Source: Tubiluchus corallicola (Eukaryota > Animalia > Priapulida). From it: a DNA stretch of 64,000 bases. Within the stretch, counting starts at the first letter, position 1, and the number at the start of each line of letters is the position of its first letter. Positions 24,150-55,440 of the stretch are shown here, piece by piece. Made by a program: the position numbers and the translations under genes. Where the stretch lies: assembly GCA_030141605.1 (NCBI GenBank), contig JAQGDQ010000217.1:186001-250000 (forward strand), in the 5' to 3' direction. The notes under the pieces were generated by a model that had not been told where the DNA came from, ran no database searches, and worked only from the letters and a program-made list of their open reading frames with translations.

Positions 24150-25290
24150 AATAGTTACAGAATTTAGAAAATTTTCAGTTTACTAAGAGTGTAAAATACT
24201 TTATAAACAGCCATTGTCAACTGACTGAACATGCCTCTTTCCTAAAAACAGCAACTATATATATTTATAAAATTGTCTGCAACTGTTTTGATTGCAAAAA
24301 TTTGGTTGGCACAATGGTACCCTTTTCGGAACCCTAATTGTTTATTAGTTAATAATTTCTGTTCTTCACGGTAACTTTGAATACGTTCATTATAAACTGT
24401 TGCGAACAGTTTACTCAGGCAGCTAGATACAGCGATACATCTGTAATTACTACGCATATCTGCGTCATCAGTTTTATAAATAGGCACAATATGGCTCTCA
24501 GACAAAATGCGTGGATATACACCAGTTGAATAAATCAGATTATATAATTTACATAAACTAGGTCCTATTAGAACTACTGACGATTTTAAAATTTCATTTG
24601 TTATAAAATAGTCTGTGCAAGACTTGTTATTGTTTAATCTGTTTACACTCTTATTGATTTCCTGTACAGTGAATATATAGTCAAGCTCAGAAAAACAGTG
24701 AGGTTCTTTCTTGAAAGTTTCTTCAATTTGAGGTATAAGCATCATTGGCAATATTGCTGTTCATAAGACTTTTAAAATAATTTAGCCATTCAGTAGGTTC
24801 AAATGGGGTTTTGTTATGTTTTGAATTTTTCTTCAGTTGTGAAATAGTATCCCAAAAGGCAGCAGGATTAGATTTTTCTAGATTTTTTAGCTGCCCGATT
24901 ACAGTTGATGTATATCGTCTCATAGTGGAACGTTGCAATTTCCTAAGTCTTTTTTTTAATAGCTGTTCTCTTAAAGCTCTATGGAAGGAATTTCTGGACA
25001 GCTTTTCATTTTAAGTTTTTCATTATCTTTAATACTGCCTCGCAGTTCTTAGTAACCTAGAGTGTTTTATTTTTCAACATATTTTAACTTAGAGCGCCTT
25101 ACATGACCTAATCTAAGCAGTTTTGGGTTTTCAACCCTAATACAATGTTGATAAATTTCATTGATATTAAAACATGCCTCATCAACAATTCAACACCAAT
25201 TTTTTGCAATAGTTTTTAGTCATTTCTTGGGTATAATTACCGCTTAAAATGGTGGTACCTTTGCTTTGGCATTTCAAATTTTTTCAAGTC
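24150..25290 (-). mobile_element. Decayed non-LTR retrotransposon (LINE) ORF2 fragment
   Basis: Frameshifted ORFs 24723-24938 (NPAAFWDTISQLK) and 24242-24751 (IVPIYK..D..SNYRCIAVSSCLSKLF...QLGFRKG) correspond to the RT N-terminal subdomains. Boundaries are approximate. Confidence 0.88.
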
Positions 25291-28314: not shown

Positions 28315-31300
28315 ATGGAACAAGGAAAAATTTTGCCACTTTTAGATTCTAATCATGGAAGTGCCACTTCTAGTGAAGAGCAAGTTAAATTATTAGATGT
28401 TAGTAATAAAATCAGGCAACCAGAGATTGAACAAATTAAGCTTCTAGATGCTTTTGCATTGCCCACGGTAAATGGTGAAAAGGAATCTACTAAAGCTGAA
28501 ATACAAGATTCTGACATTCCTAGGCCTGTGGCTGTTAATTTTCTATCACGAAAAGTTACGAATGAATTGTCACAAGAAGAAGATAACAGTGGTAAAAAAA
28601 GTCGGTCTGTCAATGGCACAGCATCTAGTGACAAAGTGGTGGATAGGTGCAATCCTAAAGCAGTGGAAACTGATGATATTGTGCCGGTAACAGCAGATGC
28701 CAGTGACAATATTAATACATCTAGTGAAACCGAAAAGTTGACAGTAGATGATGACAGCGTGTCAGAGAAGTCTTTGGTAATTAACATGAGTGATGATGAG
28801 GAATCGCCTGATAATAAGGATGAGTCACTTAATAACAAGGAAGAAATTGATGCTGCAAATGAGAATAGAACGGAAGTTGTTGATACTGTAGATGGAAACG
28901 AGCAGGGAGATAAGGAAAACAGAATGGAATGTGCTAGTAGCTGTCTAGATGACGAAAATAAAAGTGAAAATGCAGCAGTTGTCGGTTCTCGGAGTACATG
29001 TGAAGATGGTGATAAAAAAGAAATGACACCAAATGTTGGCATTAATAAAGATAGCGCAAGCAGTTTTGCTACTGAAAAACAATCAAAACAGTTGCCCAGT
29101 GATTTCGCTGATAAATTAACAAAAGATATTTCAGACATTTTAAAAGGTGTTGGTAAACCCGGTAACAATAACGCTGCTGCCCAAGGTCTTTCTTTATCTG
29201 CAAAAGCGGACATTGAAGCTACGACTTGTGATCTTGAAATTAAAGAACAAGATGTGTGGTCAATTGGATCATTACCGTCTTTGAGTAAGATCAAGAAACC
29301 AAAAGGTATTATATACATATATATATTTTCAGTCTTATGTAGTATATTGTATACATGTATAGTAATATATGTGTATTATATCACTCTCAGTAAGGTCGAC
29401 CACAAAAAATTTCTATCTTACCTCATAAGCTCAAAAATGTCAGTAAGCAGGGAGAAATTTTTTTTAAAGCTTTATGAATGTTTAAAGCTAAAGCGTTTGT
29501 TTCCCACTGGCTAACAGTAATGTTTTAAATTTTTCAGTGCACTAATTTTATCGATTATCGCATTGTTTCTTTTTTATATTGTATGAGCATATGGTCTGAT
29601 AATTATGGTGTAAACGGCAACACTACTCTGCAGTTAATACGATAATTTGGCATAAAATATGATAATTTTTAACCTTCAATATGATAATCGGCATCATACA
29701 AAATGGCAACCTTTTTTAAGAGTTAGCTGTAGAAAAACATGGCTGCTCTTGCGGAAACAATGATGTTATAATAATTACTGCATTTTATATTTTAAATTAA
29801 AAAAGTATGCTCTGATATGACTGCACCAGGTAAGTATCCGAACATATGAAAAAAATATGTTAAAATTTCACATAAATTTGCAAATTTTGCTGATGCGTAT
29901 TTTCAGTTGTGGATAAATGAAAAAGAGATAACCTTGTGTCACTGCAGGCCCAATTATTAAAAGTTACGTTAAATTTAATTTTCATAAGAATAATTTGCAA
30001 ACTTGTACGTGGTGATTTATAAAGTGTCGGTGAATTGCATCCAAGATGTGTATCAGCATCTATTACCGTATACTTTCTCGCACTGAACTAATTGTAATTT
30101 AATATTTATTTGTTTCACCAACACATAAAATAATTACAATCAAGGTAACAAAGCTTACAGTACAATATCGTAGAATACAATAGCAAAATAGTTTTAACGT
30201 ATTATGTCAATAATGCCAGACAAACATTTAAGTTTTTAATAGAAAGATAGTAATGGACCTTTTCCCGTTAATTGTAATGATATGTGACGTCTTGCAGTGG
30301 CCTCAGAAAGCCGAAGCTTACAGAAAAGACCTGACAGTGAAACAGAAATTAGTTAGTACAAAAGAGGTGAAGGTGAAGTTGTCCCTAAGTAGTGACTGCG
30401 AAAAGAGGAGGACAGAAGGGGGAGAGGGAAAGATGATGCTATGTGATGTAACTAAGATTAAAATTAGCAGAGAAGTGCAGCATGAGACTTGCTGCAAAAA
30501 CAGAAGAAGATTAGCCTCACTTTGCATAATAGGAATAAGTGACAGGTATCACATGGATATTATTATACCGGTCTATTATTTCTTCCAGTATTTTTATGCT
30601 ATTCTCTTATTTATAGGAACTAAGGATATTCCTTTTAATACATCATTGAAAGCAAAACTACTTTTAGTTTCCTTAGCTAATTGTTGTATATCATTTCATG
30701 TTTTTGAGCCCTGGTATTTTATGAATATTAGTAATTTTTTCAATATTCATTCTACATAATGATATATAGAATTAATTGTACCTTGTGCTATAGCATAGAT
30801 TGTGACGGTTTTATTGGACTGTTACAAAAACTGTTATTATAACGAGCTTATACATATAAATAAGTAACTTAATTTTTACTATGTCATCCATGTTATAGCA
30901 CATTATGATTTCAATGATTAGTGTAGGCACTTGAATGTGTATAAACTGTCCCTGATGAGATCTTTATCATATAAATGTTTTGTAGCCAATCTGGATGTTC
31001 ATTTAAGATGACCTCTAAAAATGAACATCTAGATTGAGCAACTGGAGGCAAATATACTCTGCCGGACCCAATGCAAGTTTTTAGCTTTTTACAAAATTAG
31101 AGTCGGGTGAGGACAGGAAAATGCTTGCAATTACTCTACATGTTTATAATAGTAGAAAATAATGGTTTCACCTGTATTTTGCTTGTGAAATAACTAATAA
31201 TTCATATTCAGTGTTTCCTAGATTTCAATCATATGGCCTTTTCCAACATTGGTTCAAGTGGCAATGTCTTTCAAACTTTTGGCACTAGCAATTTCATTTT

Positions 31301-34300
31301 TTTGCTGTATGTTTCCAAAGCTTCAAGGCAATAGTATATGATTCATGTATTCTAGGGCAATGGCTGTTCTCATCTGTTATTTCTTTCCCACTACAAATGT
31401 TCACCGCACATGGTTTTTCGTTTACCACTCACTGATGGCCCACAAATGATCTGACTGGTCCCAAAAACTTCATCGAATATAATTCAACCTGCGTTTTCCA
31501 ATGATACTGCTAGCAAGGAGCAAGTTCATACTAGTGCAGATACCTATTGCTTAGTTTTTGTTAATAAGTTGTTACTTTGGTTCCAAAAGAGTGCTCTGTC
31601 AGGCACCTTCCAGGCCAGCCAGTTCTAGTACAGAAAACTTGGATACCACCTACTGGTTGAGGCACTGGGTTCATACATAGTACAATTGTAAAGCCCTTGC
31701 TGAAATCGCTTGACCATCATCATTTGTTTCAGTTTCATTTTTTCTAGCTCCTGTCTGACTTCTGAGTATCCCAAGTTCTCTCAGATCCTTAGTAATCTGT
31801 CCGGGTTATTGTTCACTGTTTAATAATTGAAGAGATGTAGCCACTTTTAGCTTTATTGGTTTTGCCCAAATTCTAAAATCCCGTCAAGCTGCATATGCAA
31901 TGCATTTTCTCGATGTTAACCATCATGGGCTATGATGCCTCAAAACCACAGATTTCAGTTGTAAACCCAAATCTTTCCCCATAAACACTTATTTACAGTA
32001 CTTTGTTCAGCAAAAAACATTAATCTGGCTCAGTTCAGCAAAATTATGTACTAATAATGTCTGGACTATTATTGTTGTATAGACTTTCTTACTTTCAAAA
32101 AGTTGCACACTAGTTGCACTATACCTTTCCCTTGGTTCTCTGACTTATTACATATCTATGCTAAACTAGGAGACAATTCAAAAATTATAAACTTTAATAC
32201 TATGAAGGTAGTCTTGCCATATCAGTCCAGTGCCCAGGTCACGTAGACTTGATTTTTGCCTTGATCTATAAACAATATCACTTAAAACCCAGAAATTTGT
32301 TCAGTCCTCACCGATTATATTGCAACAGATAAAGCAAGCACGCAGAATTTCGTAGCTTGACTTACTAACATTTTTGTGTGATGTTGTACAGGCCAACAAC
32401 AGTGGTGACGTTAACTAATATAAGTATTGCTATATTTCGCTAGGCCCTGCGAGACCCATAACTGTTACTTTATAAAATAGTTGAAGCACACACAACTCAA
32501 ATGTTTGTATAACCCTCTAACTGACATGCTTACAAACTCGAGATTTTAAATGATGATTGATGGTGATTTGTAACTACACTGTACCTATATCTAACTTCTC
32601 ATTCATAAAAAAGTTGTATGTGTTAGACTTGCCTCATTATAAATGTATGTGATATGATTGATATCCCTTTTTGATGTAGCTTTTGTAAACTCCATCATCT
32701 AGATAAAAATGATCAACACCTCTTATTTTGAGTATTTTTCAGCAAAGATAGTGGGTATAACAGACCTGTTTAAATGTATTTAAAAATATGCGTATCTTTT
32801 ATTTATTTTTTGGCAAAACTAGTCTAGACACTGTACTATGGGACTGCACATGTACTTAGAAAGTATTAACTATGCAACTCTTAGTTTCAAAATAACTGAA
32901 TGTACATGCATAATTATTGCAGCCAAGAAATCTTTTTCGCCATCTTCTCCTGCTTTAAATACCAGTGCTGATAGTCATGATGTCCAAGACTTTCCTAAAA
33001 CGAAGAAGCTTCGGACCGCAAGTCCAGTACCTGTAAGGCCAAGGCAGCAGGATGGATTTACCCCGGAACAAACTGCCTTACTCAAAGTACCCCTTGATCG
33101 GGGTGAGTATTATTACCTTGACTAAAAATTTTCTTTATGCTTTGATTAAGCAGCTCAGTTGTCCTTATCGTGGCCACTTTTGAGCAAATGAAAATAAGAA
33201 GGTATTTTGATATTCTAGAAAATCTCTCTAATATCAAAGTACCTCCTTATTTTGTTATTTAAAAAAATAATCAAGTCGAATTGTGAACTCTTAAAATATC
33301 ATGTTGTGCATTAATGCTCGAATAATCATTCAGTGCTTTCTTAACGTTTCAGTAAAAAACTTGTTGAATCTCCCTCAGTGCAGATATCGTGTTGCCCTGT
33401 AATACTGACCTGCATTGAAGATGAATAATCTCACCAAACTAAACTTTGCTGACATGATCATGAGCAATTTATGCACACTTTTCTGCGTGAAAGGACTGAC
33501 AGACAGAGAGAAACAAAACATACTTGATTTTGTCCTTTTGTCTTTTATTTATACATGTGTTAGCAAAACCTGGCGAGCTTCTGCCTCCTTCCTTCCCTCC
33601 CCTTGCATCTCTTTCTTCTCTCTTTCTCTCTCTCTATCTCTTTTTTCTCTTTCTCTCTCGCTCTCTCTCACTCATGTGTGTGTCTTTCTCTCTCACTTTC
33701 TGCCTTTTCTCTCTCTCACCTAAATGTATAGGCATTTTTTGGGATTTTCAGAAGACCTTCCACAGTGTATGGATGCCCTGCATGTTTTCAGTATGTGTAC
33801 AGAAATTGATGCAAATGATAATAAAGTTAAATATTAGTATGCCAGTAACAGTGTGTGTGAGGTTATTAGAAATTGTATTGAAGTGGTACTGTGACCGATT
33901 ACATTCCTGATGTTTGCTTTGAATATGAGTTATAAATTTTGCAGTGCAGACAAAACAGAACTGAGGTTATTGTTTTCAAAAGTGACCTCTAAGATGATGC
34001 TAGTTTACCTAATTTCCAGAGCTAATATTTTTTAATATCATATACTTCTTAAGCTTATAAAGGCCCACTTTTTTAGCTTAATTATAGGTAATAAAAATAA
34101 TAATATCATTTTGTTAGCATCGCATTTGAATTTTGCCTCTGGGCAGGTGAGATGTTTGCCTCTTCAAACATTCTCTACAGTTGCGACGTAGGAGCTGATG
34201 AGCCAGTTACTTACCTCCTACGTGTAAGTGCTGCTGCTTAGGTTTTACCTCCTAATTATGTTCTATAGTATTTATACTGTACTGTACGGGTTCTTTGTAG

Positions 34301-37300
34301 TGTGTTTAATTGCCCTTTCTAAGCCTTAAAACCTGCTGATCGAAGTTTACAGCTTGTGAAATGTTTATTTTCTAGTGTTTCCCATTCTAACCCATGCACA
34401 TTACATGAATTGTACATAATTATTATAGTTCATACATGATTTAGCTGGCCTATCAGTACAGTTTCATACAGTTTTTGAATCTGTATAAATCGGACAATAC
34501 CAGTAATTTGCAGACTGTTTTTTACGGGGATTCGGATTTTTGTGGACACCGAAGGAAAGTTTGAATTTTTGGATGTAAGCTTCAAAGCTAAAAGAGTCGA
34601 TATCATTACTGACCATTCAGTCAAGTTCTACCAATTCCGGCATAAATGGACGATCGAAGTCGCTAGGGAGCTTCGGGATCACACCTCGTTCCTTATCAAT
34701 TCCATCACAACAATATATGAACGCGCAGACTTTATCCTGTTGCAAGCGGCTCATAGCATGCGCTGTGATCAGCTTCGCAGGGCTATTTCCAATGTTCTTG
34801 TAATGATAGAGATCCTCCAAACATCCATGAGGAGCAGCAAAGACATCGGAGTACACTTGGTATTTGTGGACACAAAGACTGAAACCTGTAAACTTGTGAA
34901 CACGTTTTTTTACTTGTACACAAAAATCCACAAAGAAGGTGACCCCTGAAAAAAGATGTCCACAAATCCGTTTTGGCGTCCACAAAAATCAAGCACCCCG
35001 TTTTTACTCACGAGCAGTTTTACTGACACTTGTTTTTAAATCGAGAACAATCTTTGTGATCTTGATTCTGATTTTGCCAGCAAAAATAGTATTAGAATAT
35101 AGTTTTATAATAATAAAACTATAACACTATTGTCAAGATAAAAAATTCAAATTCTTAGATTATTAGATCACTGAATTATATTATTATTGTACATGGCAGA
35201 TAAAATAGTGTTAAACGCAGCTTCTTCAAACGCCACAACAATTTACAAGGAACCGACCGAAAAAAAGAAACTCGCCTAAAATAATTATAATTTCACGTAT
35301 CATGAAGCTCAGTGCTATACTTAGGTTACCCATTTAACGCACTTGTTTTCCAAATATTTGTCGCATACGCGGTAGTGCACGTGCGGTATATGGGATTGTG
35401 TGCTTAACCGCGCCAACCGGAATTTGGAAATGTTCTTGAAAGTGGCAACTCTGACGGTCGCCTTAGCAACGCTATCGAATGTGATAACTCGGTGGAAACC
35501 TTTTTGAAGTTGTGAAACCATCTAGTAAAATTTTTGTGATTGGTCAACGTTTTTCGTTTTCGCCAGTTATGATGCCCCTTTTATAATTATCAGACACTTG
35601 TTTTAAGACAACGGCCCAAGTTTCTGCTAGTGAATGTCTAGGCAAATTTCGCGGTTTTGTAAGGTTCGTGTGCGAACGTTTTGAGGTGAAATAATTGTGT
35701 TTTTTCTCTTATATATTTTTTGGAAGCTTGATAAACTTTAGCGTAAAACAAAATTAAAGGATACAGTAGTATTTCTAAAATTTCATAAATTCTTTGACAG
35801 CATTTTCTGTTTAACATACTATATTATAAGCTGCTATTTTTTCATAGATCTAAAGTTTCTATTAACTAACCATGTTTAAAAACAAAAAAGACTGTATATG
35901 GTCGAGCAAAGCGCTGTATTAGGCCTAGATTCATATTCATATCCAGTGTTTAAGGCTAGAGGTACATCCTTGGATCACTTATATTTTTTTATAGTTATAA
36001 TGCATGTTCTTCACTGGCATGATCTAGTGTGTGTATGGTACAAAGAATTTTTTGTGATTCCTCTCGCATTTCATATTTCTTTTGAATTAATTTATTGACT
36101 TAAATATTACAGTTTTGCTGCTTAAACCATTGCAGCTGTTGACTCCTCAGTTGCTGAAAGCGCAGTTTGCATACAGTTTGGCTCAGGGTCTGTAGAATTT
36201 ACTAGGATGACCTCTATTAGTAGCTGCATTCCTCAAAACGAAGGATTCCTCATCTAAAACGTTATTGATAATTAGCAAAACCTGAATCATGTCACTTCGT
36301 TGTCGTCTACGTTTTAAAGATGGAATATTTAATTTAGTTTTTTTATTTAATCCAAGTTGCTGAATGATGGAGCCAGCTTGGTAGCCGTTCGTTGAACCTC
36401 TTGTATAAGTTGAGCATCTCTTATAAATCTTGGTCCCCAAACAACATTAGCATATTTAGGTGTGGTCTAATGAGAGTTTTGATTATGTGAACAATCATTT
36501 CTTTTTATCATTTATCACTAAAACTTTTATCATTACTTTTCATGTTTTCATTCTCTAAAGTATGAACAAAAGTTACGAAAATTTGATTGTTAAAAAAGTT
36601 AAATTTCAAATAATTTGTATGTTTATAAAGTGCATTATGCAAATTGTTCCACATGATTTTCATTATTATCGCTGCCTGACACTGGGTCTCCATTATTATC
36701 TACTTCAGGATTCACCACTTCACCATTGTTATTCTCCTTTGCGACTTATTAATCTTATGAATCCGTGTTATAGTTGCTTAAAGCTGTCAGGTCATACATA
36801 ACGCAGTCACATCAAATTAGTCAAGATTATGTACCCGACACGTAAATGGGGTCACCAATATAAGTACGCAAATAAAGAGCTGTGAAAGCTTTTTCAGCCA
36901 ACCAAGAGGTCTATATTACACTCCTTGCCAAAGCAGTGGTGAAAATCTTTAACATATTTTCGTCCACCCCTGTCTCTTCTGATTGTTCAGTGCAAAACTT
37001 TAGGTTCTAGAAAAGTTGATATATGTGTAACATTAAATTATGTTTTGTCATTTCTATCTAATTCTATCTTTTTTGAAGTATATACTGTAAAACAAATTGA
37101 TGCTGCTAATCTGGACAATGTTGAGGAAAAGACAGTGGGCTTTCTTGTTACTGAGAACACTGTCAGCTGCCAAAGGCTTCATTTAGTTATCTTTAGTTAA
37201 AGGCCATTATTATGCTCTTGTCAGGGCTATGTAGAGTTAAAGTAGTAAATGTGCAATTGTTTTAGGTTGGAAGAGAATACTGTCTCATAGGTCTGGGGCA

Positions 37301-40300
37301 GCAGATCCAAAGATCAGAGCTGACGTATATTATTATACTCCACAAAATAAGCAGTTGGTATGTCAATTATGGTTTCGAGTTCTTGTCAGACCTGCAGATA
37401 TCTGATAATAGCAGCGAGTTCCAAAATGGAGCTCTATCTTATTATGACTTTTATAAGTATCGTTATTCTTTTTTTATTTAAGTTTTACGATTTAACTGTG
37501 TGCTTGTTAGGCTGGTCACGAGAATTTGTTTATCGAGCATATGCATCAGCTGAAAATGAAACAGTAGCCCAGGAGTTGAAGCTAAAGAAGGGTTTTGATG
37601 TTTATTATTACACCCCAGACAGAGTGAAATTGGTATAATTTTCAATTTTTTTCTAATTCTTTCTAATGTACTTATGTTTATGCTTTCTAAAATAGTTGCT
37701 TATCTAGCTAACATTGTCCTTTGCATTAAGCATTCTTTGTCTTAATAATTTCTTATGACATTTGTCATTACTAGTTTAATTGTAGAGCTTCTCGTTGGGT
37801 TGTATTATTTCTCCTCACTAAATTTGGAGGTTAACCTTTTTTAGAAGTACTCATTTTTTGCCAATTCTGTTAAAAACACTGATTCTGTTTACTAATAAAT
37901 TTTTGTTACTTTCGTCATGGAATTTTTTGATTGACTTTAACATTGTTTTAATCCAAAAGATTTGCACTGAAAAATAGAAAGTGAAATTTTCTCACTTGCC
38001 ATTACTAACTTGTATTAAGCACTGAACTACTGTTTCGTTTGCTTAACACAAATTCTGCCTATTATTTTTAAACGTGATAGTAATCAAGCCTTAAGGCAGG
38101 TATTGTAATTTCATTACAATACACCTTTTATTTAAGATTTGTAAGTCGCAGTTAAATCGTAAGCTTTATTTTGAAGTATTTTTTTAATTTTAAGCTTACT
38201 AATTTCCAAATATACGTACATGAATGTTCAACTTTCATAATAAAAGAAATTGCAAAAATGTGTTACACGTAAAAAATTTTACATGTAACACATTTTGCAA
38301 TACACACACGCACGTGCACGCACGCACACATGCATACACACACATTATATAATAATATAATACTGTTAGTAGCACCTCATAGTACGATTAATAACAAGTT
38401 TTAGGAATTTTTGCTTCTTTACCTTTTTTGACATTTTTTATTGTGTGTTTGCTCGGCTCTTCAGCTTATTATTCACTTTGGCAATTTTTTACAGTAATTT
38501 TTTTAACCAATTGCTACTACATGTAATTTAGTGATTTCATATAAATACTCTATAGTTGTCACTTGAACTGAAATGCACTTTGACACCAAACATTGAATTG
38601 TTTTTTTTATGTTTACTATTGTAATTGCCATTTTGATGCATTATTATGCTATGAATTACAAACAAGAGGAGTAGTCTGCATTTATTATAAATTTGTTAAA
38701 ACTATTAATATTTTGACTAATGAAATTTATTATATTTGCAGAGGTCCAATGTTCAAGTTGCACAGCATTGTAAGTAGTATATTTACTTTGCTTTTGCAAG
38801 TTCCAAAATTGTAATTCCATTAAAAAGACTTAAATGCACCTTATTAATAATTGTAAATGGAGTTCTATTCCAATGTCATTGTAATTACATATAAATTAAC
38901 TGTAGAGATCATTACACACTCCGCACATGAGAGGCTTCCATGCACAAACACGAGTTACTTAATTGTGTTTGTATTACCTTTTCCATCTTAATATTACTGT
39001 TTGTAATTTTTATAGTGCAAGAGGCTGGTATTACCAATCTAACTGGTGCAAATTTTTCGTATGGAAAATTTTTGATTGGGCATCCAAACGAGACTGAGCG
39101 ACATGCTAATCCTGCTAATAGAGGTGCACCATTAAAAGCACTTGTAAGTCATAATTTGATGTTTGCTTAGTTGCCTATGAAAGAAAATAATGAAGAGAAG
39201 ATTAGTTTCAAAATGATGATCAAATGGCAGTGCTGACGATTGTGGCAGCTTTGTTTTTTTCATGCTTTTGAAAAATAGTTTACCCACAGTTTTTATTTGC
39301 AGCATGCTAAAAACAACAGTACACCTTTGAAGAAATATAAGAAGAAGAAAAAGATGAGTTCTCCGCTGAAATCGCCTACTGCGGCTCAGCAGCAATTACC
39401 TGCAAAATCTGCGAATGATTCTCTTCCTGTCACAGACCACTCATACACTGCTTACACGCCAACTGTGTTTAAAGGTCCTCTTAAAATTAAATTAAAAACT
39501 CCAGGTAGTGCTTCGGCAGTCATTCAAAAATCAGTGCAGCGTAAACCTCCTGCACGAGCAGATGCTAGCATATACCAAAAAGCAACAAAGGCGTCATACA
39601 CCCCATTTACTTCTACAGCTAGTTCAACTCAGTCAAAAAATTTACATGATGCTTCACCGGAAACAATGCGTCCTTTGAAGTTCCAAAAGGCTGTTAAGTC
39701 TTTTCCTAAATCTAAAACAGACGTGACCCAGAAGGCTGTGAAATCCTTTTCGAAGTCTGGAATAGAGATAATACGCCCTAAGACGTTCCAAAATACGCAG
39801 AAAGCCGTAAAATCATTTTCTACTACCCCCGTACAGACCACCAGTTCTTCACATACTAGGTATGTTTGTTTTAACTGAATTTAATTACTCCTATTTTAAT
39901 TTCTTTGCATAACTGATGATTTATGCTATGAATAGATATTAAAGTTATTTTATGTCATCTATTTATGTGCAAATTAACACAGTCGGATTTTTGTCCATTT
40001 TTAAATTACTAATTTATCTACAATTTATTCTTAGTTGACCCTGTTTTGTTTCTGTTTATAATGCATGGCTTTCCTCTGATTGCTTAAACAGAATAAAACC
40101 AGTGGTCATACAATTGATTTGCAATAATGAGCAATGCAGTAAATCACTAGAATCACATATGCTTGCTGGCATCTTTTTGATTTTTATCTAAAACCGGGCG
40201 GTAATGGCACCCGCTAATATGCTTCACAAAAAATTCAGGAAAACTATAAGTGTTGCTGTCACAAAGCTCCACCAGAACCGAGCTTCGAAACGAATCCGAG

Positions 40301-43300
40301 TCGGAGCTTTGATTCGATCCGATTTGTTGAAGCTATTTTATTTCCTAATTGATTTGGTAGAGTTTCTTTTTTAATTTTGCTTAGCTTCGGCTGCAGAGGC
40401 AATTCAGTAGCATTTTGTTACAAAGAATTTTATACAATCTTTCACCCTTTATTTTTCGGAAGTTTTTTGTCCTACTTGAAATATGCCAATGTCACCACTT
40501 TCAGTTTCACCTTGTCTAACTCCTGAAGTCCAAGCACACACCACATTACGAGTTAAACTGCTAGTTTCAACAAAAATGATAAAATTCCTTGTATTACTTT
40601 AACTGAATGCTGCACATAATGTGTTTTACCGAACACGGTTTGATAACTACTCACAGTGTTATTGTAGAATTCTGTCAACCATGCTGCTCAGACTAGAGTA
40701 AAGCTGGACCAATCATTTTATTTATGATTATTCACAGTACATTTTGTCAGTTACTCTCAGTTACAGCAAAATGATCTGTTAGTCACTGGCATTTGTTGCA
40801 AAATAACTAGATCATAGTTTTTTTTATTGCAAATCATGCTGCTTAGATGGGCATCTGTAGAAAAAGCAAAACGTAAAATAATGTCTGCTACATTTCCCTG
40901 TTATAATCCAGGGGCTTCTAATAGTTACATGGTTTCTTGTGTATTTATAGTACAGTGACATGCTTTCTTGCATTTTTATACTACAATGATATTATAAATG
41001 TGTTAGATTCTGTGATTTTTACTACTGTGTTGTTTTTTGCGAATTTTATTTACTCTGTGATTATTTTCATTTGCTTGTATTTTTAGTGAATACCTAGGTA
41101 ACAAACTCCAAACAGAATTAGTATTTTGTGATTGTTGCAGTTTTTGTTTTTCACCTGTTCAAAGGTAATCCATGCTGTGATTGTGATTTGAAATGTCTTG
41201 TACCTTTTTATTTTCTTTACTGTGGCATTTTTTATTAATTGTGGGCCAACATATTCTTGTGTTTAGAAATTATCTCCATGTTAGGAAGACTGTATTTTTG
41301 TTTGTAATTTTTAGGTTAAACACCATAAAGGATGTGTCTTGTAGCATTTCATGTCTTGGACGCAATGGGGCTTTCCCCAGTTTACACTGTGGTATTTGCC
41401 TGGCTTTGTTTCACCCGGAATGTGTAGGCTTAACTGGTAAAGTGCAGCCTGTTTTTGTGTGCGCGGTAAGTGTCTCCAAATTATTGTTGTTACATAAAAA
41501 TAATGTTTGCAGAATCATAGAACTGTTACAGTCAGTTCGATAAGCATATACAAGTAATTATCAAATCCTTTAATTTTTGGTGTCCTAAGTAATTTACCTA
41601 TATAGTTTAAACACATTTAAACACAGTTTTTTCACTTTCAGAAATGTTTACGCGATCATAGTCATGTGGGTGGTAATGTTTCAATGGCAAATAAGTGGAA
41701 TGTTCAGTCAGCCTCCAAACCAGTTTCCACTTCGCCTGTTACGCCGCTTACAAGTGGCCATTTTGCAACAACAGTTGCGGCTCCTGTCTCCCCACTCACC
41801 AACCTTCCGCCTCCTCCACCATTGAAAGTGGGTGCTGCTTTTTCCTTACAGACTGTTAGAACTTCTGGTTCTGTTCATCCAATGAGACCACCAGTTTTGC
41901 AGTCAAGAAACTCTATACCTTCAGCTGTTACATTACAACATGTAAGGCCTCCAGCTCTCACCCAAGCGACAAAACCGCCAATGCTGACATCAGTTACGTC
42001 TCTTGGTTCACCAGTGGTTGCTGAAGCATTACCACAACTGACACCTCGGCCAACTCTTTCCACAATTTCACCAGCTACTTCTCCAAAAGTTGTTTCTGTT
42101 GCGACTTTGAATCAGGTATGATTTTCAGTTCATTATTTTAATTTGCTTCACATAGTTTTTTCTGATTAATTCAAAATCAAATCAAAGGCATAAATATTAA
42201 GTTAAATTTGTATAAATTAAATAAATTTTGTAATTTGTGTTAAGAAAGTGATGTTCTTATATTTTTCAGACTCCAAGGTTTTCTCAGTCGCAGCCAAATT
42301 TTGTCTTGCAGCCTAACCAGAACTATGTGGTTCAAAATGGTAGGGTTATAACGGGAGCAGGAAACATGCCTGGCACTATGTTTTTTTCTAATCCAAATCC
42401 TGTTCGCCCTGCTGTACCGGCGGTAGCATTTTCTCTCCCTTATACACTGGCAACGCCCTCTTTAACTCAAACGGTGCCTGCAACCAATGTCACTTCTAGA
42501 ATACAGACACATATGACGCAACCACAGAGTAGTGCTGTACCATCAATGACTGTCTCTATAAAAGTACCAAGTAATGGACCTGCCACTTCAAAAGCTCTGT
42601 CATCTGTTGCTCAGCAACAAGTGCCTAATTCTAGTGTTAGGCAGAAAGAGAAATTCAGAGCGAAGCGTTTAGGTGTTAACCCAGCTGCATGCCATATACA
42701 GAAGCTACACGCAGGTTACGATGTGCTCCTGCATGTGTTCTATCATTTGAACTATGCTGATCTGTTACGAGCTAGCTGTGTTTGCCGAATATGGCACAAT
42801 GTAATAAAGGATGCTTCTGTGGTAAGATGATTTACGGTTGTTGCAGTTTTGTTCGATTCTAGAGTTAAGGAAACTTACAAAGTAAATTTTAATGTGTTAA
42901 AGTCTCGATTTTTGCTGTACAGCTTAATTGTTGGAATTTTTTTCAAATTAGTTAAGAATGGTACAGTGTACAGCTTAGGATCTCGGTTGTGCATGATTTG
43001 CAAAAACTACGTCTCATATCCAAAAATACAGTTTCGGTCAGTTTAAGACCATTTAAGATCAAAAGTTAGCCTCGGAAAATTTAAAGCCCCCTAATGTCAA
43101 AGTTGCATGGCTGGAGTTATAGAACTTAATCGTCAGAAAAATTGTGCTTTTGCAAAATTTCCCAATTGGAATTACTGCTTCTTTGCACAGTACTTTTTCC
43201 ATTTCAGTGGAGAACAATTCGTTTAAAAGATTCCAGTTTTCGTAGTTGGGGTGGATTACTTAGACGAATGAAGAAGTACAATACAGTTCATTTGGTATGA

Positions 43301-46300
43301 AAGTCGTATATCGTTTATTTGTCATATACATTTGAGTTGCATGCTGTGGTTGTTGCTAGTGCTGATATTATCTTTTAGCTGTAAAAATTCGACAGGTAAA
43401 AAGTTACTAGTTTATTTTCATTTTTAGGATTTCCAAGATGTGAGAATATTGACGAACCCACCTAGCATGCTCTGGCAAGCTGTGCCAGAAATTATAGAAT
43501 CTGCTCTTAGTTTGAAACGCATTAACTTTGGAAAGGTATGTTGCATTCTATAAAGTAAGAGTGTCAAAACTGAGTATCTTTTGTGCTGATGATGTGACCA
43601 TATATTTATAAAATAGGATAGTTGGAATAGAAATCTTTTTCACTATGCTAGCTTGATAGCTTCTAAGTAGGATTTTGCCTTCACTCTGCATTTTCTCATT
43701 TATCAGTTTTACATGGTGGTAGTATGCTTTCGCCTATATTGTAATATATGAGTGTTCTTTCTTGCTTATAATGCAAATTCTAAATGCGGTTGTGGTTTAT
43801 TCATAAATTTAAGTCGCAATTTCAGTTTTTTTAAAGTGGTTTTCATAGTGCCCAATTGTTCTGAATAAATACCAGACTTAGTCGAATTAGTGAATACGGA
43901 ATGGCAACACTTTAATTTGTATTATATCATAGTTGTAAACCAGTGGTTCCAAAACTCATTATCTCGTGACTCAACTTCACTGTGCGAGATGAAACTGCAA
44001 TCCCTTCTGAGTGCACTAACTACACTGATCAAACTAAACATCAAAATGCGTTCATCAAGCTTGATTATCTTTTGTTAACTGTATTTGTTTGCAAAGTTTA
44101 TTTATTACATTAGGGCTTACGTTTAGGAATTAATTTTACAGTTCGTTAATGTGACGAATGGGCTTGCTTATTGCCCGAGACCAGCATAATCGAGTTCAGT
44201 GTTGAACAAAGAGATAATTACAATATGTTTACTTTCCAGTTTCAGTCGCTTTCTCTTAGTTTTCACTGTGCCATCATGGAAAATCCTCTCAACATAGATA
44301 GATAATTTGATGGCTAAGTACTTTCAGCATTTTGATTGCTCTTTTTGACAAATGACTGCAAAACTGCGATCAAATATTTTTTTTCTGACTGGCCAGAAAC
44401 TCCACAAACTATTCACACAACACAGTTTATACAAAGTTAATACTAAACTGAACGAGCAGATTTACACTCGACACATTGTAGATATACAGAATTGCAAACC
44501 TAAGCCTAAGCCTAATAAGTATGAATTTTCTTACTTGGGAGAGCCCTTTGGCTTATTAACTGTAGGACTGTGTTTGATTCGTTTGCACCTTGCCAAGAAG
44601 CATTCGCGAAATGCCAAAGCCGGAAAATGCTACTTCTTGGTTATTTCGGAAAGGCTCACAACTCATTGAAAAGTGCCTTGTAACTTTAGGTTTGCCAACC
44701 ACCATTGTGAATGAGTTACTTGTTAAACATTGATTACGAGTTCGAATACTTGCATTTTTTTATTTTTTTTAATTTGGTAGTTGTGAAAAGTTGAAAGAAT
44801 TGCACAGTTCAAAATGTTATTCATTTTGCAGGTTCCATCGTCAGTTTTGTTGAAATTTGTTTACTCGCCCAGCATATGTAAACAGTTGAAAGAATTGACT
44901 GCAGATGCAATCATAGAAAACCCAGATTCGACAGCAGCTTGGTATGAGCATGTACATTAAGAACGTGTAGTTGTGTGTATTTACGGGAAACTAGCTGAGT
45001 TGAACATACTTTGCTATATAATTTTCATTTAGAACAGCTGGTGCTTTATATCTTACGATTTATAAGATGACTGGTAAAGGTAGAAGGGAGAATGAAAGGG
45101 AGGAGAGTGAGATTGAGGGGTGAGAGAGGCAGTGAGGGTAGGAATGGTGCAAGCAGCAACTTGTGAGTGAATTGCAAGAGGGAAAGATAGACTGCAAGAC
45201 AAAGAGTAATTGTTTACCTGAATAAAATCGTCCAATTGTCCCAATGGTTTTTTTAGGTGTAATGTGATAAAGTTTGATATTGGAAAGTTTAGCAATATGC
45301 AAAACCTGCAGGAGTTGAAAATTCGAGCCCTAACAGGAATGCAGTCCCCTTCTTTCCAATTCAGTGGTGGGATGGAGGTGCTGCCATCTTTAAAGCATCT
45401 ACGAAAATTGGTATGGTGTTACTATGCTGTTCCGCTAATTATGCTTTTGCAAAAAGTGTCAGTGTTTGTGTATTGTCAGTCAAGAATCTTCCATACTTTT
45501 GCTTTATAGATTAGCCACATTTCAAATTTTCATGACAAAATACTAGGGTTTTATTGTAAATTTTTATCTGTTATGTGGCTTGTGACATTATAGGGCTACA
45601 CTTGTGTTATAAAGAAATTAAGGTCATTCTAGTTATTGTTTTTCTGTTGAAATAGATTTTTTGTTTTAATTTTATCCCATTTCAGAATTAAAATAAATTT
45701 GCATTATATTTGTTAATTTATTTATCTGTTTCTCATATTTTATTTTTTTGGAGAGGATGTTTAGTCCATAACTGCAATGTAAATTATATTGTCTTGCTGT
45801 TATCTGCAAATCTATCATGATAGATTTACTACTAACAACCATTTTTTCTGTTCCAGTCACTTACGAATTTAAGAGATATTCGTGAGCAAGAGTTCAGTTT
45901 TCTAGGCGAAATGTTAGAGTTGGAATCACTAGAGCTGGGTGACTGCCGAACATGGAGCTCAGAAGTATGTGAGCTCTTGAACTTTTATCTGATCTGCAGC
46001 TTCTTAAGGCAGTGTTTTTCAACCAGTGTGCCGCGGCACGCTGATGTGCCGTGAAAGATCATCAGGTGTGCCGTGGGAAATTATCTAATATCACCTAATT
46101 AACCATTGTCGGGGGTCTGTGCTGTAATAAACTGTGGCCGATAATGTAAAACTCTTTTATTTCAGTGGGTGGCAGCAGAGAGCGATAAATGCCTGTAAAG
46201 TCAATAGAGTTAGTGTTTATGTACAGCATCATTACTTGAAATATACTTGACTCTCAAAACACTGCGGGATTGAATGATAAACAAGAGAATTATCGCTGTT

Positions 46301-49275
46301 GTATGTTTGCTTAGTAAATTCGTATACAGTTTACTTTGAGCACATAACTGGTTTAGATATACCATAGTTTAGGTTTGCTATATATACAAATGTAAATGTG
46401 TTGCGGGCAATCAACCACAGACAGCTTCATTAATATAGTAAGTTTTCATGCTTCTTTAGAACTATCAATCGACTTGATCAGGCGTAATTGTAGGGCCAAA
46501 GAATTATACAATTTGGAGGCAGGAGACGTGAACGATTATGTGACTAGCCTGCTACGTGAGACTTCAAGATTTCACCACTTTCTGTGCTGACGCATAAGTC
46601 AGAATGGTCACGTGACCGCCTATTGTTTCAACACGCACGTGTCTGTAAATGGTGGTGGTGCCCGAGGATTTTGGAAATGTAAAAAATGTGCCGTGGCTCA
46701 AAAAAGGTTGAAAATCACTGTCTTAACGGGTTGTCCACATACAAGATTTTGGGTCGTTTATAGAGTATTGTAAAAAATTGACAGATGTCTTACAGTGACC
46801 TCATTAGGCAAACGTATCGTTTCCTTTTCTTTTTGAGTAATTCAATAAAGTTCTTGCTGTTGAGCATTCACCATTTTTATTTTATTGTTGTGATGCAGTT
46901 GGCTAAACTCTAGTGTTTTTTGGCTAATTGTTGAATATTCTTACATTTGTACATACTTTAACTAACATGGTTTCTGTACTGTGGCAAGAAAGTTATTTTT
47001 TTAATCAAATTTAGCATTTTTTTGAGGATTAAAATAACGCGGACAGTCTGATAATTTAAAACTATGCGATCTAATTGTAGAAATTGAATCTTATTTTTGT
47101 ATTGAACAAATATTTGTGTTCAAAGTTCAATTTGTTTGTAATTATTTTTCCGATAAATTTGAATTCACAGCAACATTGCGTAACATACACTTTATTTACA
47201 AGCACATGTTATTTCTTTTTGCCCTAGCAGTCAAGCAGTTATCGAAATCATTCTGTAATGACTACAATGTTTAAATTGGATTGTATCTAAACAGCTAGTT
47301 TATTTTATGATTATTGCAAAATTCTGCCTGCTCACTGGTTGCTAGACGTGATCATGTTTCTGTGAACCATCCACCGCATAAGGTTCACCACCAGTTGATT
47401 TTTATAGTGCATAATCAATTTTTTATCACATATTTATTGGGTGATATATCATCTATTATTTATTGTTAGCCACAATCATTTATTGTTTTTTACCAGTAAA
47501 GAGTGAAATGTATAACTGTGAACATTAAAAGTTAAGAGTGGGAAAACATACTTGTGAAACAGCATGTTTAAATTCCTCTTTGGTGGGTGTTACTTTTGTA
47601 GGCTTATAGCAGTTTCTGTGTAAATTTTCATTTGGATTTAACTAGAATTTTTAAGCTTTGCCCGACACTATTTAAATCTCATTTCATAACATTTTAAATG
47701 TTTTGTGTTGTTCCGTTATAGTGTGCATTTGTAAATACATATGCATTCTGAAAAAAATACTTTACACTGATATTTAAGAAATAATTCACTTACTTTTGCA
47801 GACTTATTATGAACTAGGTAAGCTGGTGAAACTCAGGCATCTCCACTTGGAGGCAGGAGGAGAGATTCCTGACGTAGGACTTGCAGATGCCATACACAAC
47901 ATGCATGAGTATGTATCAGAGTCGTCTGATAATCCTCTAAAACACTTACTGTCAGGAGATAAAGGAAAATTATAATATGTAGCATTTTAAGGCAGCTTTT
48001 GGATGTTGAATGTTTGTTTACATGCAAACAGTATCAGGTTAGCAAGCTAACTGAATATTGTGTTCAAGCTTTCATATGTAACTAAACCTTGTACACACCA
48101 ATTTGTAATGAATACAGTGAAATTCGTGTATTGATATTTCAAACAGCTGTTCTATGCACATAACGCACCGAGAACTAAACAAAACAGTACGTCCTCTCAG
48201 TGAGTCTAACTATATATGTTTTGGGAAAATTTCAATTAGACACTAACACTGATTGATATGACAAGAGGCTGTAGGCAAATTTCTTTCGTAAAAATTTTGC
48301 ACTTTTACGCTTGCAGTCAAGTAGGGTAAGGCGCAAATGAGTTGTGCGCTTGATAGAGACACAGTTTTCAGCAATTATCAGTCGAGAGACAAAAACATTA
48401 ATATCGTGCGCAGTTTTATTTTACTAGCGGGATTTTTGAACAGATTAACATAGCAAATAGTATTTTAGTGCTTCATATTAGGCAAAAATGTTGATGTTAA
48501 AGTAAAAACTGCTTTGAGCAAGTCAAAAAAGTCGTATTTAAAATGAAAAAAGTTGGCAAATGTTCAGCCTCGTTGAATTGAAATGTCTCTAAATGGAGTG
48601 TCGTTAAGTGATGACACAGCGCTTTTATTATTTTTTCTATAAATTAAGAGTTGATGTCTTTTCATTCCAGATTAGCGACCCTTGAGCTCATTATGTTTAC
48701 AGTACCAGACACGTTGATATCTGTGCTCCCTCAACTTCCAAATTTGCGTAATCTCAGCATATGGCCCGATGTTGAACAGGTAAGTAATCGCTCAGCGTGT
48801 TCTACTAGATGTAAAATTTAATTATTCTCTTGCCTGATATACATATCTATGTACTGGTAGTTGTTAAAAAAGTTATTGAAAATTGTTTCTCTGCATATTT
48901 TGTGTTGTAGATATGCATTTTTCATGGCATTCAAAAATATTTCATTGATGCTTATTTATAATGTTCATCTATATTTTTCAGGCTGATGTCATTAATACAA
49001 ACGTCTTCTGTCTTGTTATGTGTTTGCCAAAACTGAAACGTTTTGACTGGGGCGTGGCTTGTGAAACCGACAAACTGGGGCAGCAGACAATTACTGCGAT
49101 ACCTTTTCTTCCCTTAAATGAATGGTCTGTTCCAAACATTCCGGGTTTGGCACTTGGCCGGGATGCAACCACGATGTCCGTTACCCAGCTCATGGAAAAT
49201 CTTTGCCCGGTTTTACCGAAGACAAAGATTCGTGTATTGCGAGTTCCAATCGTGAAGTCACCAAAGACGAAATAA
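28315..49275 (+). CDS. MBD-PHD-F-box-LRR protein (~1409/1419 aa; acidic N-terminus, methyl-CpG-binding domain, PHD finger, P/S/T-rich linker, F-box, LRRs)
   Basis: Exons 28315-29305, 32923-33102, [37266-37357 OR 37511-37632], 38742-38769, 39016-39143, 39303-39859, 41315-41465, 41642-42115, 42270-42821, 43208-43294, 43428-43535, 44832-44941, 45257-45410, 45857-45964, 47802-47908, 48671-48779, 48982-49275. All introns are GT-AG and phase-consistent (4230 nt with exon A). MBD: PLDRGWKR...DVYYYTP..KQLRS..QVAQHL..NLTGANFSY. PHD: CSISC..CGIC..FHPEC..CAKC. F-box: DVLLHVFYHLNYADLLRASCVCRIWHNVIKDASVWRTI. LRRs: LQELKI, LRKLSL, LESLEL, LRHLHL, LRNLSI. Confidence 0.88.
33585..33720. repeat. Imperfect (CT)n pyrimidine microsatellite
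   Basis: Direct reading. Confidence 0.9.
34524..35001. mobile_element. Unclassified TIR element (478 bp) with ACGGGG ends
   Basis: Left end ACGGGGATTCGGATTTTTGTGGACACC; reverse complement of right end ACGGGGTGCTTGATTTTTGTGGACGCC. Internal TGTGGACAC/GTCCACA repeats; T-run flanks on both sides. Confidence 0.65.
35340..35700 (+). promoter_or_regulatory. Candidate intronic promoter: E-box, ETS-like site, RFX X-box, CCAAT box
   Basis: CpG-rich patch with CACGTG (~35378), CCGGAA (~35417), GTCGCCTTAGCAAC (35457-35470) and ATTGG (~35539). Confidence 0.5.
36180..36470 (-). mobile_element. CR1-type LINE 3' fragment
   Basis: Peptide LNIPSLKRRRQRSDMIQV...NRGHPSKF resembles the CR1 ORF2 C-terminal motif L..LSL..RR.RGDLI.V...TRGH.KL. 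Confidence 0.75.
37266..37357 (+). CDS. MBD core exon A (mutually exclusive)
   Basis: TTTAG|GT...TTG|GTATG, phase 1 in and phase 0 out; encodes GWKRILSHRSGAADPKIRADVYYYTPQNKQL. Confidence 0.85.
37511..37632 (+). CDS. MBD core exon B (mutually exclusive)
   Basis: GTTAG|GC...TTG|GTATA, phase 1 in and phase 0 out; encodes GWSREFVYRAYASAENETVAQELKLKKGFDVYYYTPDRVKL. Confidence 0.85.
38249..38343. repeat. ~25-bp-stem inverted repeat followed by an alternating purine-pyrimidine (CA/CG) tract
   Basis: Arms ATTGCAAAAATGTGTTACACGTAAAA and TTTTACATGTAACACATTTTGCAAT, then TACACACACGCACGTGCACGCACGCACACATGCATACACACAC. Confidence 0.85.
43941..44704. mobile_element. Degenerate hAT-like non-autonomous element
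   Basis: Left end CAGTGGTTCCAAAAC, right end GGTTTGCCAACCACCA, imperfect 8-bp TSD (TTGTAAAC/TTGTGAAT). Confidence 0.45.
46010..46720. mobile_element. hAT (Charlie-like) non-autonomous transposon, 711 bp
   Basis: TIRs CAGTGTTTTTCAACC and GGTTGAAAATCACTG; 8-bp TSD TCTTAAGG/TCTTAACG; subterminal GTGCCGTG repeats. Confidence 0.9.
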
Positions 49276-54923: not shown

Positions 54924-55440
54924 CTACAAAACATTTTTAGCATGCAAAGTGAAAATGTTCAAATGTACAAAAATGTTAAAATTTCGGGAATTTATTGTAT
55001 ACACCATTACACAAATGTTTCATATCAGGTCAGTGTTGGTTTTGTTATTTAGACAATAACTGTGTTATGACTGCACACTATGAACAGTAATTCACACTAC
55101 GAACACCTACTATAAATGGCAAAATGCATATTACCATGACAATAACGGCAATAATGAAAACTGATGGTTGTTAGCTTATCACAGGGCCCTCATAGGTTAG
55201 GTATAACAAAGTTTATATTCTTTTAGTAAAATGTGCTGATAATTTATTGGGATGTTGGAGAACAGCTACCAAATTCTTTCCTAACAAATTGTTTACTACA
55301 AGCCTGCAAACACCGCATAGAGCAAATTAAAAGCGACTAACTGCAAAGTGCAAACATTTGAACTATCATTAACATTTTAAATATGCAGAAATGATTTCAG
55401 TAAAGCCATTCAGATCACACACAGTTATTTTGTTTAGTCC

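Follow-up and report, generated by a model that had tools for sequence, protein, structure and literature searches.

How can a single gene carry two versions of the exon that encodes the core of a methyl-CpG-binding domain (MBD), can both versions be used, and what would the choice between them change? These questions are raised by a 64,000-nucleotide (nt) stretch of the priapulid Tubiluchus corallicola (contig JAQGDQ010000217.1, positions 186,001 to 250,000 of the forward strand; the whole stretch is called the window hereafter), in which a gene joining an MBD to an F-box contains two such exons, A and B, lying in tandem. From the comparisons described below we consider it probable that an MBD-core exon was duplicated in tandem long ago to give A and B, that the two are likely spliced alternately, and that the resulting forms would differ in the tightness of their DNA binding rather than in their target. 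The exons concerned are the following.

37266..37357, plus strand: exon A, 92 nt, encoding MBD strand 1, a 10-residue loop and strands 2-3
37511..37632, plus strand: exon B, 122 nt, encoding MBD strand 1, a 20-residue loop and strands 2-3; nearer to the family consensus
32923..33102, plus strand: common upstream exon, whose phase-1 end falls within the Gly codon preceding the MBD Trp, likewise in the related loci L004 and L008
38742..38769, plus strand: common 28-nt micro-exon encoding the equivalent of the second arginine finger; 28 nt long in all five related loci that reach it

The original prediction, made from the letters of the window, had given these coordinates, lengths, phases and the common 28-nt exon correctly, together with the loop lengths of 10 and 20 residues; its description of the B loop as partly acidic did not hold, since three acidic and three basic residues leave that loop net neutral. 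Both exons have canonical AG/GT borders (tttag/G...TTG/gtatgt for A, gttag/G...TTG/gtataa for B), enter in phase 1 and exit in phase 0. Their homology is apparent from a protein alignment score of 44, reached by none of 5000 shuffles, and from Pfam, whose MBD profile matches both over the identical stretch 15-42 (E 0.0036 for A, 0.014 for B), with scores under the curated cut-off because the queries are fragments. Furthermore, a family hidden Markov model (HMM) built from 10 relatives, the window copies being excluded, recognises two copies in the window, A at 19.5 and B at 33.4 bits (E 3e-4 and 1e-8), and no third, the next match in the window reaching 5.9 bits. An allelic or assembly duplicate was rejected, as A and B are identical at only 11 of 20 aligned residues. 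Third codon positions differ at 10 of 20 sites and six of the 11 common residues are encoded by different codons; the duplication should therefore be old.

The reading frame itself argues for the use of one exon at a time. In a gene model of 17 exons (28315 to 49275), built with tblastn against relatives and having AG/GT at all internal splice sites, the open reading frame (ORF) is complete with either exon, yielding 1409 residues with A and 1419 with B and no internal stop. Inclusion of both exons leads to a stop after residue 439, with 14 junctions more than 50 nt downstream, and skipping of both to a stop after residue 426, with 11 such junctions, which confirms the claim that joint use or skipping breaks the frame. 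An ancestral exon running from phase 1 to phase 0 always has a length of 3n+2, so that any tandem copy is out of frame upon double use. On paper the frame may be rescued by four of the 14 micro-exons that AG..GT pairs formally allow in the A-B interval, or by five AG sites inside B. The former would need a downstream intron of 49-54 nt, the shortest intron in the gene model being 133 nt, and the frame-restoring sites inside B are embedded in purine-rich coding sequence; these formal routes look weak. Steric exclusion, judged against an intron-size threshold, is unlikely as well, since the A-B intron measures 153 nt and has a branch-like TTTAAC about 20 nt before B.

The same two-way choice appears in other animals. 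The Lingula cluster contains three RefSeq isoform proteins, and all 15 differences between X2 and X1 (1664/1665 residues) fall at residues 613-641, within the W...L segment equivalent to A and B. A scan of metagenome contigs with a pattern consisting of the exon 3' end plus donor gave eight loci, seven of which, all animal DNA, contain the family exon; the eighth, L003, was set aside as a chance pattern match (9.7 bits, without the exon start). The eight exon copies in these seven loci all show AG/G.../GT borders, a length of 3n+2 and phase 1 and phase 0 ends. L004 carries, after the upstream exon, two tandem copies of 116 and 98 nt that are separated by 84 nt, and their joint use reaches a stop. 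The frame logic, the Lingula isoform segment and the L004 pair support the mutually exclusive use that had been predicted; A and B are likely a functional mutually exclusive pair, probably spliced one at a time. The first L004 copy (minus strand, 1159-1044) has Phe in place of Trp and a one-residue insertion in strand 3, and is the odd member of its pair, as A is in the window.

On the sequences compared the exon pair is patchy, being present in three lineages and absent in at least one. Five loci cover the region in part only: L001, L002, L005 and L006 have no further copy between the exon and the micro-exon and are without sequence of the upstream flank, and L007 is without both flanks. A tree of 20 exon peptides has no supported branch and approximately unbiased (AU) tests reject none of four groupings (p 0.23-0.52), so that a single and a repeated origin are indistinguishable. 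A Thr after the conserved Asp occurs in only two of the 20 peptides, Lingula X2 (P0010) and the second copy of L004, both from duplicated pairs; this shared rare residue is a hint of a common origin, which the tree neither supports nor rejects.

Is exon A maintained? Judged against 18 relatives, B keeps 10 and A seven of 11 near-invariant positions; A retains an open frame, its splice sites and seven of the 10 invariants that B keeps. Neutral decay was simulated (30,000 runs), a run counting as A-like if it kept AG/GT, an open frame and no fewer than seven of 10 invariants. Such runs made up 1.4% at 0.25 changes per site, falling to 0.5% at 0.3. Since such retention is rare, long selection on exon A is likely, and a recent lapse is compatible with the data.

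The sequence before the two exons offers a candidate means of choosing between them, consisting of these elements.

36366..36394, plus strand: candidate docking site, able to pair with either selector (duplexes about -25 kcal/mol)
37166..37185, plus strand: candidate selector for A, 100 to 81 nt before the A acceptor
37411..37439, plus strand: candidate selector for B, 100 to 72 nt before the B acceptor; it can fold on itself (-12.3 kcal/mol)
36183..36466, minus strand: decayed remnant, in two frameshifted frames, that looks like the 3' end of a non-LTR (long terminal repeat) retrotransposon ORF; it holds the docking site in antisense

Scanning the upstream intron picked out a single 30-nt window, at 36365, able to pair with the selectors of A and B at -25.1 and -24.1 kcal/mol. 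The resulting statistic of -24.1 was reached by none of 91 shuffles (mean -17.4, standard deviation 1.2; none of eight in an earlier run) and by one of 146 real-sequence control pairs, and of the roughly 4,265 windows per strand in the whole 64,000 nt this site scores best, the next reaching -18.6. A downstream docking model was not significant (2/25), nor was homology between the two upstream introns (93/1000), and the local folding of 37150-37800 was not unusual (z -0.29). The computed candidate suggests that splice choice in this species is probably also steered by docking pairing. The family label of the retrotransposon-like fragment is presumptive; Pfam gave no supporting match, and no second copy of the fragment was found in the window or in related loci. 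Two near-perfect intronic hairpins, at 33191-33253 (29-nt arms, 86%) and 38255-38296 (20-nt arms, 95%), flank the exon pair, and the intron upstream of A also holds a 156-codon open frame at 34479-34990 with a weak match to DUF7589 (E 0.011), with an imperfect inverted repeat on either side (34524-34553; 34972-35001) and possibly a small insertion.

Several observations weigh against an alternately spliced and docking-steered pair. The Lingula isoforms are RefSeq annotation models; L008, the only locus with both flanking exons, has a single copy, so the pair is not universal; and of the 15 members listed among the 291 of the oyster cluster, 14 share one MBD form and one is without the core. 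Exon A has lost four residues (E, V, G and K) found without exception in all 18 relatives, B having lost one, and in the simulation 24% of runs at 0.1 changes per site retain the A-like state, so that a recent decay of A is compatible with what is seen. As for the docking site, the trial of two arrangements brings the strictest control to roughly p 0.03, the site lies inside an apparent decayed transposon, and no docking structure was found in the distant L004, where 120 of 150 and 32 of 150 shuffles equal the real sequence.

It is unlikely, in our judgement, that only exon B works and that A is a once-functional duplicate, now decaying and rarely or never spliced. The four lost invariant positions and the lower profile score of A (19.5 bits against 33.4 for B) would fit such a history, as would the existence of single-copy orthologues (L008) and the low pyrimidine fraction of the A acceptor (0.53), though this equals that of two constitutive exons. 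However, A keeps its frame, its AG/GT sites and the residues R, D and Y despite 50% divergence at third positions. It also has an Arg two residues before the conserved Asp, present in none of the 18 relatives, at a position used on the DNA backbone by canonical MBDs, and a candidate selector precedes A as well as B.

If both exons are used, what would the swap change? What is exchanged is strand 1, loop L1 and strands 2-3; the Asp, the Tyr and the first of the Arg fingers occur in both forms, and the second finger is encoded in the shared micro-exon. Aligned through an orthologue to full-length MBD2, the conserved R, D, Y and R correspond to R166, D176, Y178 and R188, and both variants retain these residues, as had been stated; we take the MeCP2 counterparts of the arginines and the tyrosine to be R111, R133 and Y123. 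The aspartate is D121 in MeCP2 (PMC8811898; papers are cited here by such numbers for those portions of their text that bear on the point). The two MBD arginines are the fingers required for binding of methylated CG (PMC8600091). In canonical MBDs L1 is flexible and becomes ordered on DNA, basic residues at both its ends touching the backbone, and AtMBD6, which is without these basic residues, binds methyl-CpG (mCpG) weakly but specifically (PMC8811898). At the two positions in question (first Arg +1 and Asp -2) A has one basic residue, the Arg at Asp -2, and B has none, so that neither form shows the canonical arrangement. The loop ranges from 10 to 19 residues among the 18 relatives, with A (10) and B (20) at the edges of the range; it measures 17 and 18 residues in the Lingula isoforms and 10 in a beetle orthologue (P0048), and is of low confidence in a structural model of the Lottia protein (predicted local distance difference test, pLDDT, 58-68). 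In A it opens with Ser-Gly, as in MBD2. Given this range and the one-residue difference in Lingula, a long loop set against a short one is nothing that the switch conserves. The proposal that loops of 10 and 20 residues retune methylation reading was not supported.

Retention of R, D, Y and R had also been taken to indicate an mCpG reader, which the comparisons do not establish. Against the PDB the family profile finds its best match in the TAM domain of BAZ2B (41.8 bits), MBD2 reaching 33.6 bits; the match to TAM covers chain residues 6-73 of 112 and ends before the BAZ-specific part. In the full-length Lottia model the MBD helix is followed by one more confidently predicted strand, 266-271, with no pairing partner seen. 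BAZ2A, which carries Lys in place of each finger, gained no mCpG reading when both arginines were restored in its TAM, a domain type in which strand 1 is tilted by extra strands (PMC8600091). For a domain of BAZ2/TAM-like appearance, methyl-CpG reading is therefore only putative. Because L1 and its end residues contact the backbone in canonical MBDs, affinity or flanking preference would be the likeliest target of the swap. Affinity tuning is thus favoured; a methylation on/off switch is possible and finds no support here.

Quite improbable is a true specificity switch, in which the A form would read methyl-CpG much as canonical MBDs do, the B form would be blind to methylation or bind some other sequence, and the ligase adaptor would thereby be redirected between methylated and unmethylated chromatin. 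The 10-residue loop of A with its MBD2-like Ser-Gly start and basic residue at Asp -2, set beside the 20-residue loop of B with neither backbone-contacting basic position, would fit such a switch; but the base-reading residues are identical in both forms, the beetle loop also has 10 residues, the Lingula pair differs by one, and the family may be TAM-like and read no methylation at all. Very improbable is that both exons are used in a domain working like the BAZ2 TAM, which would bind nucleic acid non-specifically or bind protein, and whose swap alters a protein- or RNA-contacting surface unrelated to methylation. This view shares its splicing claim with our preferred explanation and is suggested by the best PDB match to BAZ2B TAM, by a tree position of MBD-Fbox proteins alongside BAZ2 and SETDB and not within the methyl-binding clades (PMC6673714) and by the resemblance of the modelled Lottia strand 266-271 to the TAM extension. 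It is opposed by the relatives examined, which keep the Asp and both Arg fingers where BAZ2A has lysines for the latter, and by the end of the profile match (6-73 of 112) before the BAZ-specific part.

For an alternately spliced pair tuning affinity, we propose the following course of events. An ancestral MBD-core exon would have been duplicated in tandem, its phase 1-to-0 borders making the copies exclusive by frame, and nonsense-mediated decay (NMD) would clear transcripts with both exons or with neither. The single upstream docking site would pair with the selector before A or with that before B and so choose the exon. The swap would alter L1 and its ends, and hence DNA affinity or flanking preference, and the F-box/leucine-rich repeat (LRR) end, judging from its fold, would bring a SKP1-CUL1 or similar complex to the bound chromatin.

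The remaining exons of the gene complete a domain order of acidic N-terminus, MBD, PHD-like finger, Pro/Thr linker, F-box and LRRs.

28315..29305, plus strand: first coding exon (putative start), with a long acidic low-complexity N-terminus, an open frame and a GT donor; start codon inferred
39016..39143, plus strand: shared exon that finishes the MBD helix and adds a C-terminal extension conserved in the family (P-x-E-x-x-R-x-A-like), where an extra strand is predicted in the Lottia orthologue
39303..39859, plus strand: basic/Ser-Pro-rich linker exon of the gene model
41315..41465, plus strand: PHD-like C4-H-C3 finger exon, the last Cys pair being finished by the following exon (Pfam PHD E 0.055)
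41642..42115, plus strand: Pro/Thr-rich linker exon of the gene model
42270..42821, plus strand: F-box exon (Pfam F-box E 2e-8, above cut-off)
43208..49275, plus strand: eight LRR-region exons to the stop codon, an open model built by tblastn with relatives

In this model the F-box is in one reading frame with the MBD. The Cys and His residues of the PHD-like finger are invariant or almost so in the family alignment, and EBS/SHL chains are matched by the family profile. For the Lottia orthologue, an AlphaFold2 model made from an alignment of 14 sequences finds its best matches in the chains of FBXL2-SKP1 (Z 24.7, root-mean-square deviation 3.5, 321 aligned) and FBXL17-SKP1 (Z 24.2, root-mean-square deviation 3.6, 321 aligned); the matches listed for the whole model are to the F-box/LRR part, on which the adaptor fold rests, the MBD fold lying outside them. 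Together with the F-box and LRRs this fold supports the suggested role as a ubiquitin-ligase adaptor. The CpG observed/expected ratio of the window, 0.61, is consistent with a methylated genome.

By sequence the gene belongs to the MBD-Fbox family. A HMMER search with the F-box stretch gave 29 matches, and eight of the 16 relatives fetched pass the Pfam MBD cut-off, also having F-box and LRRs; those with names come from oysters, Lottia, Batillaria, Ylistrum, Sinanodonta, Lingula, Capitella, Priapulus and two beetles. Over the F-box/LRR region Priapulus is the closest of 14 compared (44.5% identity), Lingula having 37%, and Capitella 219279 (P0014) matches the window gene with 32% (E 1e-57). 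In Table S3 of PMC6673714 the row of Capitella 219279 adjoins a Strigamia MBD_Fbox row. There, de Mendoza et al. (2019) call MBD-Fbox 'previously unreported'; the main text names the family twice and does not contain the word 'isoform', and the parts covered mention neither a function nor an alternative exon (PMC6673714). A full-text literature search, with subscription papers and bioRxiv supplements outside its scope, found the name 'MBD-Fbox' in that one paper only and, judged mostly by titles and the openings of abstracts, nothing on mutually exclusive exons in the family. Mutually exclusive splicing is of a known kind; its placement in an MBD core appears undescribed in the literature searched. 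Word-index protein searches were uninformative (F-box stretch 0/10 candidates, exon B 0/13, Priapulus LRR region 3/410), and PDB searches with single exons gave chance matches only. Four family proteins (P0008, P0017, P0031 and P0004) are without the MBD core and two of them start exactly at the conserved micro-exon border, which suggests that gene callers overlook small exons; the family and its isoforms are probably under-annotated. The Lottia orthologue (P0005) has, before its F-box, a small predicted beta-rich module at residues 585-651 (pLDDT about 70-80), without a Pfam match; a similar stretch occurs in molluscs, Lingula, Capitella, L001, L005 and L008 and is not obviously present in the window gene.

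Elsewhere in the window, an ATG2-like gene contributes its 3' end on the plus strand at 456-761 (Pfam PF13329, E 3e-18). On the minus strand lie a multi-exon gene at about 4648-19269, whose translated ORF pieces we presume to resemble Son of sevenless (RasGEF, PH and a proline-rich tail), a decayed reverse-transcriptase fragment at 24242-25010 (RVT_1, E 0.003, below cut-off) and, at 52205-54958 and convergent with the MBD-Fbox gene, an ARMT1-like damage-control phosphatase gene (Pfam PF01937 on the piece 52208-53035, E 5e-65).

To our knowledge, the reader of gene-body methylation in invertebrates is an open question, and MBD-Fbox is a conserved family that has been named and is without a function in the literature searched. 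That three animals have an alternative exon for what is presumably the DNA-contacting face implies that this face has been varied by evolution, and natural A/B pairs lend themselves to a direct comparison of binding. The locus also illustrates a simple rule, namely that a phase 1-to-0 exon turns frame-exclusive upon duplication.

Among known systems, the MBD-Fbox family itself joins an MBD and an F-box in a single protein (PMC6673714), as the window gene does. Canonical MBDs (MBD2, MeCP2, MBD1 and MBD4) share with it the two Arg fingers, the Asp and the Tyr at equivalent spacing, whereas in MBD-Fbox L1 is longer and variable, the first Arg is not followed by lysine, the flanks resemble those of BAZ2, a C-terminal extension is present and binding is putative. 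The TAM domains of BAZ2A and BAZ2B are the best PDB sequence match and have similar flanks in Table S3 of PMC6673714; however, BAZ2A has Lys at both finger positions, where MBD-Fbox keeps Arg. Docking sites and selectors govern mutually exclusive exons in Dscam exon 6, MRP1 and 14-3-3zeta, and NMD is a known contributor to exclusion in such pairs (PMC6071210). With Dscam exon 6-type systems the window shares homologous tandem exons, exclusion by frame, one upstream docking site and a selector per exon; it differs in having two exons only, which swap an MBD core, and in a pairing that is computed for one species. Finally, FBXL19, together with the short KDM2A and KDM2B variants, places a CpG-type DNA reader before PHD, F-box and LRRs, PHD-F-box-LRR being the order in KDM2, and the KDM2B and KDM2A chains in the PDB are matched by the family profile; MBD-Fbox would act much as FBXL19 does, with an MBD for its reader. 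No CxxC match was given by Pfam in the 16 relatives or in 13 window pieces. It is tempting, and on present evidence doubtful, to see here a splice switch that several invertebrate lineages evolved, or inherited from a common ancestor, in an MBD counterpart of FBXL19/KDM2B, one that would toggle a chromatin-tethered SCF adaptor between targeting that reads methylation and targeting blind to it and would be steered in this species by a transposon-derived docking site. KDM2 carries a CxxC finger and resembles FBXL19 (PMC3685328). The difference between the two designs lies in the reader, which in FBXL19 and KDM2 is a ZF-CxxC that binds unmethylated CpG and in MBD-Fbox is an MBD.

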